From positions 239,558 to 303,557 of the forward strand of contig CP070794.1 of NCBI GenBank assembly GCA_020343435.1: a DNA stretch of 64,000 bases, read 5' to 3'. Positions 2,679-61,591 of this stretch are shown in pieces. This DNA comes from an archaeon (lineage in GTDB: Archaea > Nanobdellota > Nanobdellia > Pacearchaeales > UBA284). Under the pieces are notes generated by a model. The model was not told where the DNA came from, searched no databases, and saw only the letters and a list, made by a program, of their open reading frames with translations. The position numbers and the translations under genes are program-made. Positions within the stretch are counted from its first letter, which is position 1, and each line of letters starts with the position of its first letter.

Positions 2679-2725
2679 TTTATAAATCCTAAATTCCCTT
2701 TTTCAAAGAGGTGATCAGACCTCAG
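2679..2725 (+). promoter_or_regulatory. TATA box plus conserved 18-nt 5' module GAGGTGATCAGACCTCAG (copy 1 of 2)
   Basis: TTTATAAA is at 2679-2686 and the motif at 2708-2725, starting 29 nt after the TATA start (the predicted TSS). GAGGT/ACCTC can form a hairpin. GAGGTGATC is complementary to the 16S 3' end seen at 61419-61430. The second copy is at 47445-47462. Confidence 0.5.
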
Positions 2726-3271
2726 ACCGTTTCTGAGATTGAGAAAATGGCAAAAGTAATGTTTTATTCTCCAGATGAATATGAATACCTCCAATTAGTT
2801 GATTTCTTTAGAAGAACAGACAGAGACTATTCTCCCCCAACTTCACAAATAATGGGAGGAATTGAAGAATACCTCCATCACTGGATTCTTCAAGAAGGAG
2901 AAGCAACAATAGCAAAAACAAGGGAAGGAATTATTGGAAGTTTTGGTTGGTGGAATGTTGGTGATTTATACTGGGCAGATTGGATTGGTGTTTTAGAAAG
3001 ATTTAGAGGAGAAGGACTACATATAGAACTTATTAAACATGCCTTAACAAAAAGACCAAGAACAGTTAATGGAATTGCATATAATAGAACTTGCCAAGGG
3101 AATTCAAAAACTCCAAAATTAATGGAAGGCCTTGGAGCTGAAAGAATAAATCCAGAACAAATTCCAAACCCAATAATGAAAACAGTGCCCCCAATTCAAG
3201 GCAGAGAAAGTTTATGGTATAAATTACAATTAAGCAAGGCTCATGAAAGATTGGGGATTCAATCACAATAA
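2711..3271 (+). CDS. GNAT-family N-acetyltransferase-like protein (R/G/W-rich class)
   Basis: VLERFRGEGLHIELIKHAL resembles GNAT motif A (R-x-x-G-x-G). The start is either GTG 2711 inside the conserved 5' module or ATG 2747. Confidence 0.5.
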   Translation: MIRPQTVSEIEKMAKVMFYSPDEYEYLQLVDFFRRTDRDYSPPTSQIMGGIEEYLHHWILQEGEATIAKTREGIIGSFGWWNVGDLYWADWIGVLERFRGEGLHIELIKHALTKRPRTVNGIAYNRTCQGNSKTPKLMEGLGAERINPEQIPNPIMKTVPPIQGRESLWYKLQLSKAHERLGIQSQ

Positions 3272-4382: not shown

Positions 4383-6488
4383 CTACCTACTTACAGGTGC
4401 AGGAATTACAGTATGTCCTACATTAAATAATCTTCGCTCCTCAAACTCCTTTTGTTTTCCCCTATTCCAGTTCATTATTGGTCTCAAATATCCCACTACT
4501 CTACTATAAACTTCAGTTACTTTTCCACAAACAGGACAAGATTCTTGATTTCCTTTTAAATATCCATGATCTCTACATAAAGAAAAAGTTGGTGTTAATG
4601 TGAAATAAGGAATCTTTGAGTTATGGGTCATTTTTTTAACTAATATTTTTGCTTGTTCATAATCTATAGATTCTCCTAAAAATGTATGGAATACTGTTCC
4701 ACCAGTGTAAAGAGTTTGCAATGGTTCTTGATGTTTTAAAGCAAATAAAATATCTGAAGTATAATCAACTGGTAATTGTGTTGAGTTAGTGTAATAAGGA
4801 ATATTTCCTCCTGCAGTGATTATTGAAGGGTATTGTTCTTTATCTTTTCTAGCTAATCTAAAAGAAGTTCCTTCTGCTGGTGTTGATTCTAAGTTGTAGA
4901 TATGTCCTGTTTCTTCTTGAAATTGGGTTATTCGCTCTCTCATAAATTTTAGAATCTTTATTGCAAAAGCTTGACCATTTCGTGTTTCAATACCTTCTCC
5001 TAAAAAGTTTTTACAAGCTTCATGCATTCCTACTAATCCTATTGTAGAGAAATGATGATCAAGATTTCCTAGATATCTTTTAGTGTAAGGTAATAACCAG
5101 TTATCTAAATTCCTATTTACTACTTTTCTTTTTATTTCTAGAGATCTCATTGCTAGATACATTAAACTATCCAATCTTTCCAAAAATACCTCTTCTGATC
5201 TCGCTAAATAACCCAATCTTGGTAAATTAATAGTCACAACACCAATACTTCCTGTGTTTTCCCCTGATCCAAATCTTCCTCCTGTAACATTTCTAGTTAA
5301 TTCTTTTAATTCTAACCTTAATCTACAACACATACTTCTTACATCAGAAGGTTTAAGATCTGAATTAACAAAGTTTGAAAAGTAAGGTAATCCATATTTA
5401 GAGGTCATCTTAAATAATAAATCTGCTATTTCAGTATTCCATTTAAAATCTCTTGTTATATTATATGTTGGAATTGGCCATGTGAATACTCTTCCTCTAG
5501 AATCTCCATTTAACATAACTTCAATAAATGCTTTATTTACAATATCCATTTCAGTTTGATAATCTGAATAAGTGTCTTTTTGTGCTTGTCCTGCAATAAT
5601 CACTGGTTGGTCTTTCATATCTTCTGGGACAGTTAGATCAAGAGTAATATTACTAAATGGAGTTTGGCCTCCCCATCTTGTTGTTATATTCATGTTATGC
5701 ACAAACTCTTGCATAACCTGCTTAACCCCCTGATAATCGAGGTTATCATGCCTAACAAAAGGAGCAAGATAAGTATCTACTGAATTAAAAGCTTGAGCTC
5801 CAGACCATTCGTTCTGTAAAGTTCCTATAAAGTTAACCATGTGGCCTACAGCAGTTCTCATGTGCCTTGTAGGACCAGACTCAGTTTTTCCTGGAACTCC
5901 ATTAAATCCTTCTCTTAAGAGCTGATTTAAAGACCATCCTGCGCAATAACCTGCTAAACTCATACCAAGATCATGAATATGGAAATCAGAATTAATATGT
6001 GCTTTCCCTATTTCAGGTGGATAAACATAATGTAATCCATAATATGCCATTATTGTTCCAGCTGAGTGTAAGAATAATCCTGAATGAGAGTAACCTACAT
6101 TAGCGTTTTCATTAACACGCCAGTCTTCTTTTCCTATATAATCTCTGACTACTTGTTGAGCATCTAAGAATGTTTTTTTAGTTTCCCTCATCTTTCTTCT
6201 CTCTTCTCTATATAGGATAAATGCTTTTGCTGTTTTGACATATCCTCTTCTAACTAGAACCCCTTCTATAACATCCTGGACTTCTTCAAGACCTGGAACA
6301 GGTTCAAGATGATCTGATCTCTTTTTTAATTCAGATTCTAAAGTATCAATAACTTCTCTTGTCACTTCTTCTAGATCAAACTTATCAGAATTCTCTGCTG
6401 CTCTTGCAGATTGTGTCAATGCTTGTTTAATCCTATCAGGATCAAAGTCAACAACACGACCATCCCTTTTTCTCGCCTTTTTAATCAT
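4383..6488 (-). CDS. nrdD: Anaerobic (class III) ribonucleoside-triphosphate reductase with an N-terminal ATP-cone
   Basis: ATP-cone start KRDGRVVDFDPDRIKQAL. C-terminal Zn site CRDHG..CPVCG. Glycyl-radical motif SRVVGYLRP. Confidence 0.95.
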   Translation of the reverse strand: MIKKARKRDGRVVDFDPDRIKQALTQSARAAENSDKFDLEEVTREVIDTLESELKKRSDHLEPVPGLEEVQDVIEGVLVRRGYVKTAKAFILYREERRKMRETKKTFLDAQQVVRDYIGKEDWRVNENANVGYSHSGLFLHSAGTIMAYYGLHYVYPPEIGKAHINSDFHIHDLGMSLAGYCAGWSLNQLLREGFNGVPGKTESGPTRHMRTAVGHMVNFIGTLQNEWSGAQAFNSVDTYLAPFVRHDNLDYQGVKQVMQEFVHNMNITTRWGGQTPFSNITLDLTVPEDMKDQPVIIAGQAQKDTYSDYQTEMDIVNKAFIEVMLNGDSRGRVFTWPIPTYNITRDFKWNTEIADLLFKMTSKYGLPYFSNFVNSDLKPSDVRSMCCRLRLELKELTRNVTGGRFGSGENTGSIGVVTINLPRLGYLARSEEVFLERLDSLMYLAMRSLEIKRKVVNRNLDNWLLPYTKRYLGNLDHHFSTIGLVGMHEACKNFLGEGIETRNGQAFAIKILKFMRERITQFQEETGHIYNLESTPAEGTSFRLARKDKEQYPSIITAGGNIPYYTNSTQLPVDYTSDILFALKHQEPLQTLYTGGTVFHTFLGESIDYEQAKILVKKMTHNSKIPYFTLTPTFSLCRDHGYLKGNQESCPVCGKVTEVYSRVVGYLRPIMNWNRGKQKEFEERRLFNVGHTVIPAPVSR

Positions 6489-13444: not shown

Positions 13445-13496
13445 ATTCAAAACGTTTTTATAGCAATGAATTCTTAATTAATTAAAAGAGGTTAGA

Positions 13497-15230
13497 ATGC
13501 TAGATATTGTAGCTAATGCTGTTGGATCTTTACAAGGAGCAATAGGACCCATAGCAGAATCTCAAACATTATTATTTAGTATCACAATTATTGTTGTTGT
13601 AGCAGCTATTTTTGCTTTTATTTCTAAAGCTTTAAAACAAGAATTAATTCCAGCGTATATTCTCGCTGGAGTTATCATTGGTCCATTAGTATTGGGATTA
13701 GTTAGTAGTATAGGTTTAATTAGTTCTTTAGCTGAAATGGGAATTGCTTTCTTATTATTTACTGCAGGTTTAGAGATAAGTGCTTCTAAAATTAAGAAAC
13801 AAGCTATGCCATCTGTGTTTGGAAGTGTATTTGAGATGATAATAATTGGTATTATAACTTTCTTAATAGCGGTAGCTTTGAAATTCCAGAGTGCAGAAGC
13901 AATTTATCTTGCAATCATGTTAGCATTTAGTTCAACTGTTTTAGTTGTTAAAGTCTTATCTGATAGAAGAGAATTAAATACAGTTCACGGAAGAATTTCT
14001 GTAGGTATTTTATTAGTTCAGGATGTAGCTGCTGTGATTGTTTTATTGTTATTGAATAGAAGTCTAGCTTTCTCAACTATCTTTGTTGCAATCTTACAGT
14101 TTGTTTTATTAGTATTAATTGCATTATTCTTAAATAAAACAATTCTAAAGCCATTGTTTAGATTTGCATCTTCATCCTATGAGTTATTATTCTTAGCTAC
14201 GTTAGCATTTGTATTTATATTTGCAATTTTAGCACATGCATTTAACATATCTATTGTTATTGGAGCATTTATAGCTGGATTAGCGTTATCTAATCTTCCA
14301 TATAAGTTTGAAATAGAGAGTAAGATTAAACCTTTGAGAGACTTTTTCACGATTATATTCTTTGTATCTTTAGGTATGTGGCTAACTGCCTTAAACATGA
14401 ATAAAATATGGTTACCATTTATTATTTTCCTAGCAGTTATCTTGTTTGTCAAACCATTAGTTATAGCAATTGCAATAAGATTAACTAGGTATAAACCTAG
14501 AACTAGTTTAAAGATTGGATTTGGATTAGCGCAGATTAGTGAATTTTCATTAATAATAGCATTAATAGCTATAGGAACTAATTTAATTACTCCAACAACT
14601 TTCAATTTAGTTATTCTATTAGCTATTGTAAGTATGGCTGTAACTCATTATCTTAGTGGAGCAAACACATTCTTCTTTAGAAGTTATAAGAATTTCTTAC
14701 ATTTATTTAGAAAAGTTCCCACGCATAAAGAAATAGAACCTTATCAACCTCAGAAAAAAACGATCTTGTTATTGGGTTGTCATAGGATGGGAACTATTTT
14801 CTTAAAAGGATTAAAAAAACATCATCATAAAATTCTAGCTATTGATCATGATCCAGATATTATTAAAGCTCTGATTAAACAGAAGATCTCTTGTATATAT
14901 GGTGATGTAATTAGTAATGAAATTCTAGAGATCTTACCATTCCCAGAACTTAAAGTTGCTATATCCACAATTCCAAGTGTTGATGATAATATATTCTTAA
15001 TTAAAAAACTTAAGAGGAAAAATAAAAATATTTTTGTTGTTGTAACAACAGAAAGAATTCACGATGCTAGTAGATTATATGATATGGGAGCAGATTATGT
15101 TATTGTTCCTGCTGTAGTAAGTGGTGAAAATACTTTAGATATGATATTAAAGATGAGTAAAAGGCAGTTTGGTAAGTATAAGAAAGACCACATGAAATAT
15201 CTTAAAGAATTACACAGATACCTTTATTAA
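13497..15230 (+). CDS. Kef-type monovalent cation:proton antiporter (CPA2) with a C-terminal RCK/TrkA-N domain
   Basis: About 12 TM segments followed by ILLLGCHRMGTIFLKGL (Rossmann GxGxxG-like) and a TrkA-N-like region. Confidence 0.85.
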   Translation: MLDIVANAVGSLQGAIGPIAESQTLLFSITIIVVVAAIFAFISKALKQELIPAYILAGVIIGPLVLGLVSSIGLISSLAEMGIAFLLFTAGLEISASKIKKQAMPSVFGSVFEMIIIGIITFLIAVALKFQSAEAIYLAIMLAFSSTVLVVKVLSDRRELNTVHGRISVGILLVQDVAAVIVLLLLNRSLAFSTIFVAILQFVLLVLIALFLNKTILKPLFRFASSSYELLFLATLAFVFIFAILAHAFNISIVIGAFIAGLALSNLPYKFEIESKIKPLRDFFTIIFFVSLGMWLTALNMNKIWLPFIIFLAVILFVKPLVIAIAIRLTRYKPRTSLKIGFGLAQISEFSLIIALIAIGTNLITPTTFNLVILLAIVSMAVTHYLSGANTFFFRSYKNFLHLFRKVPTHKEIEPYQPQKKTILLLGCHRMGTIFLKGLKKHHHKILAIDHDPDIIKALIKQKISCIYGDVISNEILEILPFPELKVAISTIPSVDDNIFLIKKLKRKNKNIFVVVTTERIHDASRLYDMGADYVIVPAVVSGENTLDMILKMSKRQFGKYKKDHMKYLKELHRYLY

Positions 15231-29533: not shown

Positions 29534-29644
29534 GCTTCGGTAGCTCAGTGGTTAGAGCATACGGCTGTTAAGACTCTTCTTCAAAATATGAAGGGAGAGA
29601 TCAAAGAAACCGTAGGGTCGCAGGTTCAAATCCTGCCCGAAGCG
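29534..29644 (+). tRNA. tRNA-Asn (anticodon GUU) with a 38-nt intron at the canonical 37/38 site
   Basis: Acceptor GCTTCGG/CCGAAGC, D-arm GCTC-AGTGGTTA-GAGC, anticodon stem TACGG/CCGTA around loop CTGTTAA, intron about 29571-29608, T-arm GCAGG-TTCAAAT-CCTGC. Confidence 0.85.
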
Positions 29645-35884: not shown

Positions 35885-36427
35885 TTAGATCTTCAATTTT
35901 TTAATAACTCTTTGGATTTGTTTTTCTAAATGATCTAAAGTTTTAGAATTATCTATTTGAAAATCAGCTAGTTTTTTTGTTTTACTTAAATGAAAAGTAG
36001 CCTCTTCTATTGCATCAAAATGATCAAATTCATGAGAAGTTTTTGGATCTCCCTGTCTATCTCTTTTTTTTAATCTTAAGAATCTTTGTTTAGGATCAGC
36101 ATCTACAAAAATCATAGGCATTTTTACTTTTTTCTTGAATAATTTTGCTTCTTCAGGATATCTTATTCCAGAAACTACTGCTTTTTTAAGATCTCTTTCA
36201 GCTATTTCAGATATAGCCATTTCTACAAGGATATCTTCTCCATATCTTTGTTTTATCTCATGTTGTAATCTTCTTAAATTATCTCTTAATGGTTTTACTT
36301 TTCTGTGTCTCTCTATCTTTCTTAAGAAATCACTCATAATTATCTTAGTAAATCCCTTCTTTTTAACAAAATAATTAGCTACAGTGTCTTTTCCAGAACC
36401 AATTGTTCCAGTAACTCCAATTATCAT
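35885..36427 (-). CDS. P-loop nucleotide kinase (CoaE / NMP-kinase-like)
   Basis: MIIGVTGTIGSGKDTVANYF is the P-loop. Size is 180 aa. GAGGT SD lies 6 nt upstream of the ATG. Confidence 0.55.
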   Translation of the reverse strand: MIIGVTGTIGSGKDTVANYFVKKKGFTKIIMSDFLRKIERHRKVKPLRDNLRRLQHEIKQRYGEDILVEMAISEIAERDLKKAVVSGIRYPEEAKLFKKKVKMPMIFVDADPKQRFLRLKKRDRQGDPKTSHEFDHFDAIEEATFHLSKTKKLADFQIDNSKTLDHLEKQIQRVIKKLKI

Positions 36428-36545
36428 TCTAACCTCTTTTTATTTAATAATCTAAGAACTAATTTAAAGGTTATTAGTTAATTGTTACCTCTTTCAAGTA
36501 ATTATACATAGAAAAATTTATAAAGAAAAAAGAATTTGAAAAAAT

Positions 36546-47414: not shown

Positions 47415-47462
47415 TTTATAAATTGAATTCTTATTATTGTTTTTGAGGTGGTCAGACCTCAG
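47415..47462 (+). promoter_or_regulatory. TATA box plus conserved 18-nt 5' module GAGGTGGTCAGACCTCAG (copy 2 of 2)
   Basis: TTTATAAA is at 47415-47422 and the motif at 47445-47462, 30 nt after the TATA start. It differs from 2708-2725 at one position (A/G in the loop). Confidence 0.5.
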
Positions 47463-48716
47463 CTGATTCTGGGGATGAAAATGTTAGAACCAATATTAGA
47501 TGGATCAAAAACAATAGAACATCAAGGAAGATTTAGAATTCAATTAGATATCTCTTCTAGCTCAACACTTAAAGAGGGAGATATAGAAAAAATATTAAGA
47601 GCCAGTTCCTGGGAAGTTAATCCAGAAAGTATTGCTATTGGTTCTCCAGGTGGGAGAGCAATTTCAACACCTAGAGAAGAAAGTTTGGAAGATGGAGGAA
47701 TCGTGCTAGACCTACTTAACATTAGCGGTATTGGTTATAATCCTCTACTTGTTGTATCTTATAATCCAGAATTTGGTTTTAAAAGCGAATTAATGTATGA
47801 AGAAGGTTTTCAGCCACCTTCAAATAGAAATTTTATAGATTTTACTCCAGAGACCTATAGAACCAGTTATGCAGACAATGGGTTAAAGCATCGTAGAGGT
47901 AAATTTTGTCCCCTTGGATCTTATACAAATAGACAAGTTAGAAAAAAAGTAGAAAACACAAGTTTAGTTAACAGTCTTGGTTTGAAATCTCTTCTTGTTC
48001 CAAAAATAGAAGCTTATGGAAGATATTTGGATGAAAACTTAAGAGATGAAGATGGACAATTTGGTTTTGTTGTTTATTCTGTCCCTAGTGATAAAAGAGT
48101 TGCTGGTTCTGAATTAGAGGAAGAATTTGCTGAAATGATGGGCCTTACAGAATCTGGGGACCCTACCAAAGTTATAGCTACTCTTTTGCGTAAATATACT
48201 AAGAATTTAATGGGGGGTTTAAAAGAATTACATGATAAAGGTTATTGTCATTTACAAGGACATATGGGTCAGTTTTATGATTTTCCTGAAAGACCATATT
48301 TAGTAGATTGGGAAACAATGATCCCCCTAGGTAGAACTGTCCAGGATCGTTTATTAAATAGGGAGATAGATATTTCAAAACCATTATCCAGTGTATGGAG
48401 GATGATGGGGAAATCTCAAACCTCTGGAGAAGAGGCAATGGAATTTGTAAATCAAGTAAAACCTTACTTATTGGGAGATTATCTTGGTATTTCTCCAGAT
48501 CAGATTTCAAAAGATAGGAGAGCAGCTATGATTAGATTAAGTAAGGGTCGTCGTGGAGTAATGGTAATGGAGGATGATGTTAGTGGGTTGGTTTTACAAA
48601 AACATGGTATAGAAAGATCCCCTCTTAAAAAAAATCAAGCAAAGATTGGAAGAAATGATCCATGTCCTTGCGGATCTGGTATAAAATTTAAGAAGTGTTG
48701 TGGAGGACACAAATAA
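47448..48716 (+). CDS. Protein with a C-terminal SEC-C metal-binding motif and a possible degenerate kinase-like core (ORFan class)
   Basis: C-terminus [20 protein letters not shown] is the SEC-C motif. [10 protein letters not shown]...YLVDWETM loosely resembles APH/choline-kinase H-x-D-x-x-x-x-N and DxE motifs with D and N replaced. The start is GTG 47448 or ATG 47475/47481. Confidence 0.55.
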
Positions 48717-59980: not shown

Positions 59981-61430
59981 ATTCCAGTTTATCCTGCTGG
60001 AGAATGCTGCTATCTAGCTTGGACTAAGCCATGCAAGTCCTTCGAGAGAAGGCAAACTGCTGAGTAACACGTAGCTAATCTACCCTTAGTTCTGGAATAA
60101 CTTCGGGAAACTGAGGATAATACCAGATAGGTAATAATGATTGGAATATCTTATCATTCAAAACTTTGGTGACTAAGGATGAGGCTGCGGCCTATCAGGT
60201 TGTTGTCGGGGTAAAAGCCCAACAAGCCGATGACGGGTAGGGGCGCTGAGAGGCGGAGCCCCCAGAAGGACTCTGAGACACTAGTCCTAGCCCTACGGGG
60301 TGCAGCAGGCGCGAAACTTTTGCAATGCTCGAAAGAGTGACAAAGCAAGCTAGAGTGTGTTTCCATATTGGAAACACTTTTGTCTTGTGTAAAAAGCAAG
60401 ATGAATAAGGGCTGGGTAAGACCGGTGCCAGCAGCCGCGGTAATACCGGCGGCCCAAGTGGTATTCGCATTTACTGGGTCTAAAACATTCGTAGCCGGCC
60501 TTGTAAGTCTTTTGTTAAACTTTTACGCTTAACGTAAAACTTGCAGAAGATACTGCGAGGCTAGGGACTGGGAGACGTGATGAGTACGATAAGGGTAGCG
60601 GTAAAATGCTCTGATCCTTATTGGACTAACAATGGCGAAGGCACATCACGAGAACAGCTCCGACGGTGAGGAATGAAAGCCAAGGGCGCAAAACGGATTA
60701 GATACCCGTGTAGTCTTGGCTGTAAACGCTGCCCACTAAACATTGTGATCTCCTCGAGAGATTGCGGTGCTGTAGCGAAGGCGGAAGTGGGCTACCTGGG
60801 AAGTATAGTCGCAAGATCGAAACTTAAAGGAATTGGCGGGGAGACACTACAAGGGGTGATCGCGTGCGGTTTAATTAGATTTCACACCGTGAACCTCACC
60901 AGGAGCGACAGCAGAATGAAGGTCAGATTAAAGTTCTTACCTGACACGCTGAGAGGAGATGCATGGCCGTCGTCAGCCTGTGTTGTGAGATGATCTGTTA
61001 AATCAGGTAACAGGCGAGACCCGTGTTTGTAGTTGCTATTCGGTAAGAAAGCACACTACAGAGACTGCCTTCGTAAGGAGGAGGAAGGTGCGGGCAACGA
61101 TAGGTGAGTACGTCCCGAATCCCCTGGGCTACACGCGCGCGTCAATGGTAGTAACAATGGGATGCAATGTCGAAAGGCAAAGCTAACCCCCTAAATGCTA
61201 TCTTAGTCCAGATTGAGGTTTGCAACTCAACCTCATGACGATGGAATCCCTAGTAATCGGACGTTAGCAGCGTCCGGTGAATACGTCCCTGTCTCTTGCA
61301 CACACCGCCCATCAATCCGACCGAGTTATATCTGGGTGAAGCTTTCTCGAAGAGAAGAGCCTTGGTATGGCAAGGTAGGGTAAGTTGTCACAAGGTATCC
61401 GTAGGGGAACCTGCGGATGGATCACCTCCT
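59981..61430 (+). rRNA. rrs: 16S rRNA (archaeal)
   Basis: The 5' end ATTCCAGTTTATCCTGCTGG matches archaeal ATTCCGGTTGATCCTGCCGG. GTGCCAGCAGCCGCGGTAATACCGGCGGCC is present. The 3' end is GGATCACCTCCT. Confidence 0.95.
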
Positions 61431-61491: not shown

Positions 61492-61591
61492 GGGCCTGTA
61501 GCTTAATGGTAGAGCGCTGCCCTTGCAACGATTTTTCCTTTGGGAAAAGCAAGAAAGGCAGAGGTTCTGGGTTCAAATCCCAGCAGGTCCA
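61492..61591 (+). tRNA. tRNA-Ala (anticodon UGC) with a 28-nt intron, located in the 16S-23S spacer
   Basis: Acceptor GGGCCTG/CAGGTCC gives the G3:U70 Ala identity pair. Anticodon stem CTGCC/GGCAG around loop CTTGCAA. Intron about 61528-61555 with a TTTTCC/GGAAAA hairpin. T-arm CTGGG-TTCAAAT-CCCAG. Confidence 0.85.

Follow-up and report, generated by a model that had tools for sequence, protein, structure and literature searches.

A conserved ~33-nt putative 5' leader module preceding unrelated genes of DPANN archaea

The element and its two copies in the window

The window analysed here is a 64-kb stretch of archaeal DNA (64,000 nucleotides of contig CP070794.1), and the element in question is a short conserved sequence that precedes two of its genes. 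The core of this element, the 18-nt motif GAGGTGRTCAGACCTCAG, occurs at exactly 2 window positions, 2708 and 47445, both on the + strand, and the two 18-mers are 17/18 identical, with the single difference at position 7 (A at 2714, G at 47451). An initial annotation, made from the sequence alone, had described this pair and noticed no third copy, and its coordinates, strand, and differing base were all reproduced. Allowing up to 3 mismatches on both strands of the 64 kb returns these 2 matches only, nhmmer with the --max option reports exactly two copies (37.6 bits at 2708 and 33.1 bits at 47445), and a covariance model (CM) with filters switched off scores them at 52.7 and 49.3 bits, the next best window match having 10.1. 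None of 100 dinucleotide-preserving shuffles of the window contains a match. The module shared by the two sites is real; its length, however, was underestimated, since the conserved unit comprises ~33 nt rather than 18 and continues through a 3' part to give GAGGTGNTCAGACCTCAG-NCTG-N-TTCTGRGA. Copy 1 (GAGGTGATCAGACCTCAGACCGTTTCTGAGATT) occupies 2708..2740 and copy 2 (GAGGTGGTCAGACCTCAGCTGATTCTGGGGAT) 47445..47476.

Both copies are intergenic, lie in sense orientation, and stand downstream of a TATA box (TTTATAAA), which starts 29 nt before motif base 1 at site 1 (2679..2686, +) and 30 nt before it at site 2 (47415..47422, +). The 21–22 nt from TATA box to motif are unrelated between the two sites, and the sequence after approximately +33 is unrelated between motif copies. 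Most genes in the window are leaderless, and in 13 of them the ATG follows the first base of a TTTATAAA-like box by exactly 29 nt. Because the distance from TATA box to base 1 equals the TATA-to-ATG distance of these leaderless genes, the transcript should begin at base 1 (GAGGUG), as the annotation had also predicted from this spacing; for copy 1 the predicted 5' end is 2708. Approximately one-quarter of the window genes carry a sequence resembling a Shine-Dalgarno (SD) site (GAGGT, GGTGA, GGGGG) ~5–10 nt before the ATG. In two short-leader genes the SD is itself the predicted 5' end (AAAGAGGTTAGA-ATG at 13497 and 35885), so a 5'-terminal SD appears to be native to this organism. These two genes (13497+ and 35885−) are unrelated, and their short leaders are near-identical (AAAAGAGGTTAGA-ATG; window 13455-13499 on the + strand and 36425-36470 on the − strand), with the ATG ~12–13 nt after the predicted transcription start.

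Gene 1 (2747..3271, +) is catalogued as a 174-aa protein from ATG 2747, which lies at +39 from motif base 1. No homologue at all was found for it, and it can be regarded as an ORFan; its similarity to GNAT proteins, put forward in the annotation, is weak (E=0.022, below the Pfam cut-off). Gene 2 (47481..48716, +), initially also called an ORFan, has 16 orthologues covering 97% of its open reading frame (ORF) and ends in a SEC-C tail. The predicted fold of its product is protein-kinase-like, with Bud32, RIO, the RNase L kinase domain, and maltokinase as the top Protein Data Bank (PDB) matches at low template-modelling (TM) scores, and on the basis of this model the protein may be a divergent protein-kinase-like fold with a C-terminal SEC-C zinc tail. 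Regarding the start codon, the orthologues align from the window peptide MKMLEP at ATG 47475 (+30) or 47481 (+36), not from GTG 47448. The public gene catalogue has gene 2 (47448-48716) as 307 aa, i.e., 73% of the ORF. This catalogued start appears to be mis-called by ~105 codons, as the orthologues support a product of 411–413 aa from ATG 47475/47481.

Members of the family in other genomes

To look beyond the window, 596 Gb of species-representative genomes were scanned with the 18-mer, and metagenome contigs were scanned with position 7 left free. The species-representative scan gives 7 matches, 6 of which are scattered bacterial chance matches. The seventh is a locus of a Candidatus Woesearchaeota metagenome-assembled genome (MAG; locus L010), where the sequence stays identical to window site 2 over 29 nt; the motif follows the rpS10 stop codon by 17 nt and precedes the ATG of a PPDK_N-domain gene by 36 nt. 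Among the 52 matches in metagenome contigs, sorting by GC content and flanks leaves five low-GC loci (L059, which is the same as L010, L058, L054, L018, and L061), all DPANN/Woesearchaeota-like and each preceding a different, unrelated gene. The family thus defined has 7 members, i.e., the two window copies and these five loci, plus one decayed copy. All five additional loci share the 3' extension N-CTG-N-TTCTGRGA, which was not specified by the search pattern; since they were found with the 18-mer alone, the extension is unbiased evidence for common descent or selection.

Both scoring schemes separate the family clearly. According to nhmmer, members have 33–39 bits versus ~17–25 for core-only matches, and according to the CM they have 49–55 bits versus at most 10 for everything else, with one locus (L046) intermediate. 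The motif columns are 88% identical on average across the seven members, and the motif is the sole DNA similarity among the member contigs and the window. All complete members are intergenic and in sense orientation, and the first ATG of a long ORF is found at +36 to +40 in every one of them. Six of the seven have a TATA box that starts at −29 (window copy 1, L018, L061, and L058), −30 (window copy 2), or −31 (L054) relative to base 1. As for L010, no canonical TATA box is present at the right distance, and this, together with its position 17 nt after the rpS10 stop, suggests that the element also works inside a transcript. Conservation extends neither to the 21–22 nt that separate the TATA box from the motif nor to the sequence after +33, which rules out a simple recent copy of a cassette; the promoter-cassette duplication considered in the annotation is, as a recent event, also opposed by the occurrence of the module before unrelated genes in other genomes.

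The intermediate locus L046 (6737-6763, −; 28% GC contig) carries the core plus TGTTTCTG and then diverges, reaching 26 bits with nhmmer and 31 bits with the CM. This copy has neither the TATA box nor CTGRG, lies inside the 3' end of the upstream ORF and 60 nt before the gene for a signal-peptide protein, and is probably a decayed copy of the leader. No diverged copies were detected by nhmmer in ~66 kb of unique DNA from the nearest relatives of the window NrdD (L066-L072) and the rest of the window, and an unfiltered CM scan covering the window, L066, and L070 was equally negative. Beyond the known members, no copy is present in 91 kb of related DNA. The concern that the motif might be a generic repeat with many copies inside genes is not borne out either: no copy is intragenic in the window, and the motif-only matches outside the family are chance occurrences in unrelated, high-GC DNA. 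A generic dispersed repeat or mobile element was likewise rejected, the window having 2 copies in 64 kb, intergenic, in sense orientation only, and with no flanking similarity.

Two groups of raw matches deserve separate mention. In seven GC-rich contigs (60–63% GC; L007, L021, L025, L038, L042, L057, and L063), one of them from Rhizobium altiplani, the 18-mer sits within ~80 nt that are identical in all seven. This stretch is probably coding and unrelated to the leader, and it inflates the raw pattern count. The repeat family (c)ttcgagtctgagcgatGAGGTGCTCAGACCTCAGagtcgatgac, present at least twice per contig in metagenome contigs of 39–46% GC, contains the 18-mer by coincidence (L028 246-264; L035 138-156 and 26-39; L041 234-251 and 64-82; L045 1721-1739 and 1609-1622); its appearance is that of a repeat, tandem or dispersed, from some other organism, and it is unrelated to the leader.

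The genes that follow the element have little in common. Besides the PPDK_N-domain protein of L010, the downstream proteins of L054, L018, and L061 belong to no significant family, L018 having sub-threshold Myb-like matches only. As for defence systems, PADLOC matches in the downstream proteins are limited to the SEC-C tail. Upstream of the gene 2 orthologues in L001-L004, which are only 30–40% identical, the motif was not found, so the conservation before orthologues proposed as a check in the annotation is absent for these distant relatives, and the motif is attached to genes independently of gene family. At the two window sites no Rfam 15 family reaches its gathering score, including preQ1, SAM-II, and small pseudoknot riboswitches and C/D small RNAs (sRNAs), and matches at E≤10 are noise (best E=0.45, with 16 bits versus a gathering score of 80). 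A literature search found no paper containing any of the motif 14-mers and none on DPANN leaders. The leader may therefore be described as a new small family, a ~33-nt putative regulatory module of DPANN archaea.

Regarding the host, the window, which belongs to a contig of 647,887 bp, contains an archaeal rRNA operon, and its NrdD (4383-6488, 701 aa) has at most 68% identity to anything among 5.8 billion proteins, the few named homologues being Aenigmarchaeota, Nanoarchaeia, or "archaeon" MAGs; these values place the window in a DPANN lineage that has been poorly sampled. Lengths of 997–1207 aa and intein/LAGLIDADG Pfam domains (PF14528, PF14890) are found in several close NrdD homologues; the window NrdD is intein-free. 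GGDEF-domain (diguanylate-cyclase-like) genes lie directly upstream of nrdD in L066 (8201-8869), L071 (9023-9823), and L072 (3239-4033), a position that is conserved in these DPANN-like contigs and unusual for archaea. Rfam also reports tRNAs at 29534-29644 (111 nt) and at 61492-61591 (100 nt), the latter in the 16S-23S spacer, that are absent from the ARAGORN output; presumably these are intron-containing archaeal tRNAs.

Pairing potential and competing interpretations

The 16S rRNA ends with GGATCACCTCCT at 61419..61430 (+), i.e., the anti-SD, and motif bases 1–9 (GAGGTGATC) are its perfect 9-nt complement, as had been noted initially. At the RNA level GAGGUGAUC pairs with GGAUCACCUCCU at −11.8 to −16.1 kcal/mol across members, the lowest energy belonging to copy 1 (2708-2716); in comparison, the strongest SD-like site in the 22 nt upstream of 71 window genes has −10.6. 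Pairing beyond these 9 nt is unsupported by the organism's own 16S sequence. The complement ends at +9, however, which is 27–31 nt from the AUG, in contrast to the ~5–10 nt typical of SDs in the window, and for this reason the motif is not an ordinary ribosome-binding site. Thus, the complementarity to 16S rRNA expected of a canonical SD is present, and the 4–10 nt spacing to the start codon is not.

The same bases can also pair within the leader. The GAGGT/ACCTC hairpin proposed in the annotation (H1, bases 1–5 with 12–16) has 5 bp, a 6-nt loop, and −7.8 kcal/mol; it is the consensus fold and part of the minimum free energy structure in 6/6 full-length leaders folded. In copy 1 it spans 2708..2723 (GAGGT 2708-2712 with ACCTC 2719-2723, loop GATCAG) and in copy 2 it joins 47445-47449 with 47456-47460. 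Its 3' arm, bases 12–16 (ACCTC), mimics the anti-SD. An alternative hairpin, H2, joins ACCUCAG with CUGRG (bases 14–18 with 27–31) at −4.4 to −5.7 kcal/mol, the latter value for copy 1 (2721..2737; CTCAG 2721-2725 with CTGAG 2733-2737); in copy 2 it joins 47458-47462 with 47469-47473 and is extendable by C47457-G47474. H1 and H2 are mutually exclusive because both use CUC. Since UCAG occurs twice and the loop lengths are acceptable, the H1 loop (bases 8–11) can also pair with CUGR as an H-type pseudoknot, a pairing potential that in copy 1 involves TCAG 2715-2718 and CTGA 2733-2736. H1, H2, and the pseudoknot helix are each pairable in 100% of alignment cells. The only variation in stems is a change of one pair from U-A to U-G in 3/7 members, the other variable positions (7, 19, 21, 23, and 24) all lie in predicted loops, and the spacer from CAG to CUG varies from 6 to 8 nt. 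An RNA structure is compatible with these data, although unproven.

We give about an even chance to the interpretation that the element is a non-coding 5' leader acting on RNA by SD/anti-SD mimicry to control stability or translation. The solid part of this account is that the sequences form a family with a fixed anatomy, that the element is non-coding, and that the pairings are possible at the energies given. In the proposed mechanism the TATA promoter would set the start at motif base 1, giving the mRNA 5'-GAGGUGNUCAGACCUCAG..CUG..UUCUGRGA with the AUG at +36 to +40. Segment 1 (GAGGUGAUC) is a very strong complement of the 16S tail, segment 2 (ACCUCAG) copies part of that tail, and segment 3 (CUGRG) is located 5–10 nt before the AUG. 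In the default state, the hairpin of segments 1 and 2 would be flush with the 5' end, capping the message and hiding the SD-like sequence. Binding of the small ribosomal subunit (30S) to segment 1, for which about double the strength of the hairpin is predicted, would release segment 2, which could then pair with segment 3 and so remodel the start region. The likely output would be mRNA stability and/or ribosome loading, i.e., a 5'-terminal stabiliser, or stabilising SD (STAB-SD), combined with a three-segment switch. Three observations favour RNA over DNA here: the distance to the start codon is constrained, which an operator does not need; the CAG-CUG spacer varies by 6–8 nt, as suits an RNA loop better than rigid DNA half-sites; and the change from U-A to U-G in a stem is tolerated in RNA only.

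Several points weigh against this interpretation. The transcription start is deduced from TATA spacing, and likewise we infer action at the RNA level, as well as the switching and stabilising mechanism, from the arrangement of the segments. Only 7 members and one decayed copy are known, the invariance of the core is partly an artefact of the exact-pattern search, and no pair varies on both sides, so the covariation proposed as a check in the annotation gives no support (0 compensatory changes among members). Loop bases UCAG, CUG, and UU are conserved like the stem bases, which a simple hairpin does not explain and which would be expected just as well of a site recognised by a protein, whether on RNA or on DNA. 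Even with H2 looped out, 10–12 nt remain between the end of the complement and the AUG, and the strong SD-like segment therefore cannot be a normal ribosome-binding site. The AUG-proximal CUGRGA segment is itself a weak and inconsistent SD (−2.7 to −7.7), so the freeing of a second SD is not a clean model either; its pairing with ACCUCAG is possible 5–10 nt before the AUG in 7/7 members, but real anti-SD affinity is found there in only some of them. Finally, comparison of six downstream proteins gives no related pair and no common function.

The main rival, which we consider improbable but worth serious attention, is a DNA operator in which GAGGT-N6-ACCTC, with a second repeat CTCAG-N6-8-CTGRG, covers positions +1 to +31. 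A dimeric transcription factor of archaeal type bound there would block RNA polymerase recruitment or promoter escape and thus control a small accessory-gene regulon. Its 5-6-5 palindrome is perfect, with half-site centres 11 bp apart, or approximately one helical turn, and it is fixed at +1 to +16 over the predicted start site, a typical binding position of archaeal repressors (e.g., MDR1 and NrpR). The very high conservation, including the "loop" bases, the lack of covariation, and the presence of one element before unrelated genes also agree with a regulon. However, the second palindrome has a spacing of 6–8 bp, and CTGGG in 3/7 members breaks DNA symmetry while keeping RNA pairing. The fixed ATG distance and the constant, asymmetric 3' extension in a single orientation are also left unexplained by an operator, no canonical TATA box stands at the right distance in L010, and neither window copy has an evident transcription factor gene next to it. 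Recognition might instead take place on RNA, and it is decidedly less probable, though conceivable, that the leader folds into a compact H-type pseudoknot binding a ligand or a protein, like the smallest riboswitches or the operator of an RNA-binding protein. Stem 1 would be GAGGU:ACCUC and stem 2 UCAG:CUGR, with L1 of 2 nt and L3 of 8–10 nt; both stems are pairable in every alignment cell, the loop lengths suit classical H-type geometry, and the conserved unpaired G6, CUG, and UU could supply the bases required for tertiary contacts or a binding pocket. The size of ~30 nt and the place just before the start codon also resemble preQ1-I-type riboswitches. Nevertheless, the Rfam searches offer no family for it even at E≤10, no stability on its own is predicted for the 4-bp stem 2, covariation is again missing, the downstream genes share no pathway hinting at a ligand, and CUGR pairs equally well in the simple H2 hairpin.

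Very low probability is assigned to the element being a neutral relic, now without a function of its own, of a promoter-leader cassette that was duplicated or spread horizontally. The upstream flank TTAGTT..TTTTATAAAT, common to both window copies, would fit such an origin, as would the accessory or ORFan-like nature of the associated genes, possibly recent acquisitions. Conservation is, however, patchy: the motif is 88% identical per column in seven members, is the sole similarity among the contigs, and keeps its unspecified 3' extension across genomes, while the TATA-motif spacer and the sequence after +33 are unrelated, and this pattern points to purifying selection. Least credible of all is translation from the GTG at +4, either as a near-leaderless start giving an N-terminal extension or as a short upstream ORF coupled to the main AUG. 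In 4 members this frame runs on without a stop into the main ORF, and the remaining 3 have a stop that precedes the main ATG by ~5 nt at most (after 9 codons in L010/L059, 8 in L058, and 11 in L018); 4/7 in frame does not, however, differ significantly from a chance expectation of 1/3. One-nucleotide insertions or deletions between CAG and TTCTG alter the reading frame without loss of nucleotide conservation, which indicates selection on the nucleic acid. Furthermore, orthologues and gene calls start at the downstream ATG, residues 1–8 of the AlphaFold model of gene 2 have a predicted local distance difference test (pLDDT) score below 50 (84 for the model), and the GUG lies inside the H1 stem. 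With the frame closed in 3/7 members, the M(I/V)RPQ N-terminus that the annotation had read from this GTG in both window proteins was rejected.

Some other identities were considered and dismissed. A box C/D sRNA or K-turn is inconsistent with GUGNUCA, which has a variable base (A/G/U) at the essential A, a C for G, and no terminal stem, and the sequence does not fit K-loop or bulge-helix-bulge readings when checked by hand. Regarding att sites or direct repeats of a 45-kb integrated element, the interval contains housekeeping genes (ribonucleotide reductase, deoxyhypusine synthase, and others) and the repeat is single in other genomes. A viral or mobile origin is opposed by 0 core matches in IMG/VR, where one match to a 3'-anchored pattern is due to chance (51–57% GC contig).

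Returning to the RNA leader, a more specific version of it would make the element the first DPANN-specific cis-regulatory RNA class, a 5'-terminal three-segment switch that mimics the SD:anti-SD helix and is opened by the free small ribosomal subunit or another ligand or protein, with the anti-SD mimic re-pairing with the start-proximal segment; we put this forward as a speculative and rather unlikely proposal. If true, such a switch would make accessory-gene expression depend on the availability of ribosomes in an organism with mostly leaderless translation. For DPANN archaea, whose genomes are tiny and most of which are uncultured, hardly any regulatory RNAs have been described, and ideas on their translation initiation come largely from genome statistics. 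The leader offers a testable handle on leadered mRNAs in a leaderless-dominated archaeon (30S docking, 5'-end protection, and switching), and, being portable, it defines a small set of co-marked accessory genes. Should it prove to be an operator instead, it would define a regulon and the binding site of a DPANN transcription factor. Whether RNA leader or operator, the element corrects the start-codon annotation of the associated genes.

Relation to known systems

The closest known system is the STAB-SD of Bacillus thuringiensis cry3A, a 5'-proximal SD that does not direct initiation and that binds 30S and blocks 5'-3' decay by RNase J1 (PMC4113751). A related ribosome-binding 5' stabiliser is that of Bacillus subtilis hbs (PMC5737220). 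As for archaea, 5'-3' exonucleases have been described, namely aCPSF2 (PMC3792030) and aRNase J (PMC7144898), as well as protection by binding of the 5' end (PMC3792030, PMC7144898, PMC3936769). Like the STAB-SD, the leader would place an SD-like sequence near the transcript 5' end, as predicted from TATA spacing, too far from the start codon to initiate and able to pair with the 16S 3' end. In contrast to it, the leader is archaeal, its SD-like sequence would begin at the very first nucleotide and would itself be hairpinned with an anti-SD mimic, and it has a conserved downstream CUGRG partner and a fixed AUG distance of +36 to +40.

Regarding structure, riboregulators that sequester the SD (RNA thermometers, riboswitch platforms, and erm/cat attenuators) share with the leader a middle anti-SD segment with two mutually exclusive partners; in the leader, however, the AUG-proximal partner is not a consistent SD, and neither a conserved leader peptide nor covariation is seen. 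In 5'-terminal stem-loop stabilisers, such as the Escherichia coli ompA leader, the hairpin lies within a base of the transcript 5' end. The leader would resemble them in having its hairpin at the 5' end with no single-stranded 5' tail, but ompA-type stabilisers are defined by structure, whereas the leader is near-invariant in sequence across genomes and complementary to rRNA. In phage T4 genes 38 and 25 a hairpin lies between a distant SD and the AUG and could shorten the effective spacing. A rescue of this type by H2 was rejected for the leader because the residual spacing is too long, i.e., 10–12 nt from the 9-nt complement and 15–17 nt from the GAGG core, beyond functional SD spacing.

Among DNA elements, the NrpR operator is GGAA-N6-TTCC, and the MDR1 operator also overlaps the transcription start, downstream of the TATA box. 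These operators share with the leader the short inverted repeat, its 6-bp spacer, and its location at +1 or immediately downstream, and differ from it in that the leader has variable spacing of the second repeat, G-U-only variants, a fixed ATG distance, and one copy without a canonical TATA box. Thus, the general kind of element, a cis-acting 5' leader or operator, is known, and it is the arrangement that is unusual. By analogy, the leader most resembles the bacterial 5' stabilisers, above all the cry3A STAB-SD, and also the three-segment SD/anti-SD switches.

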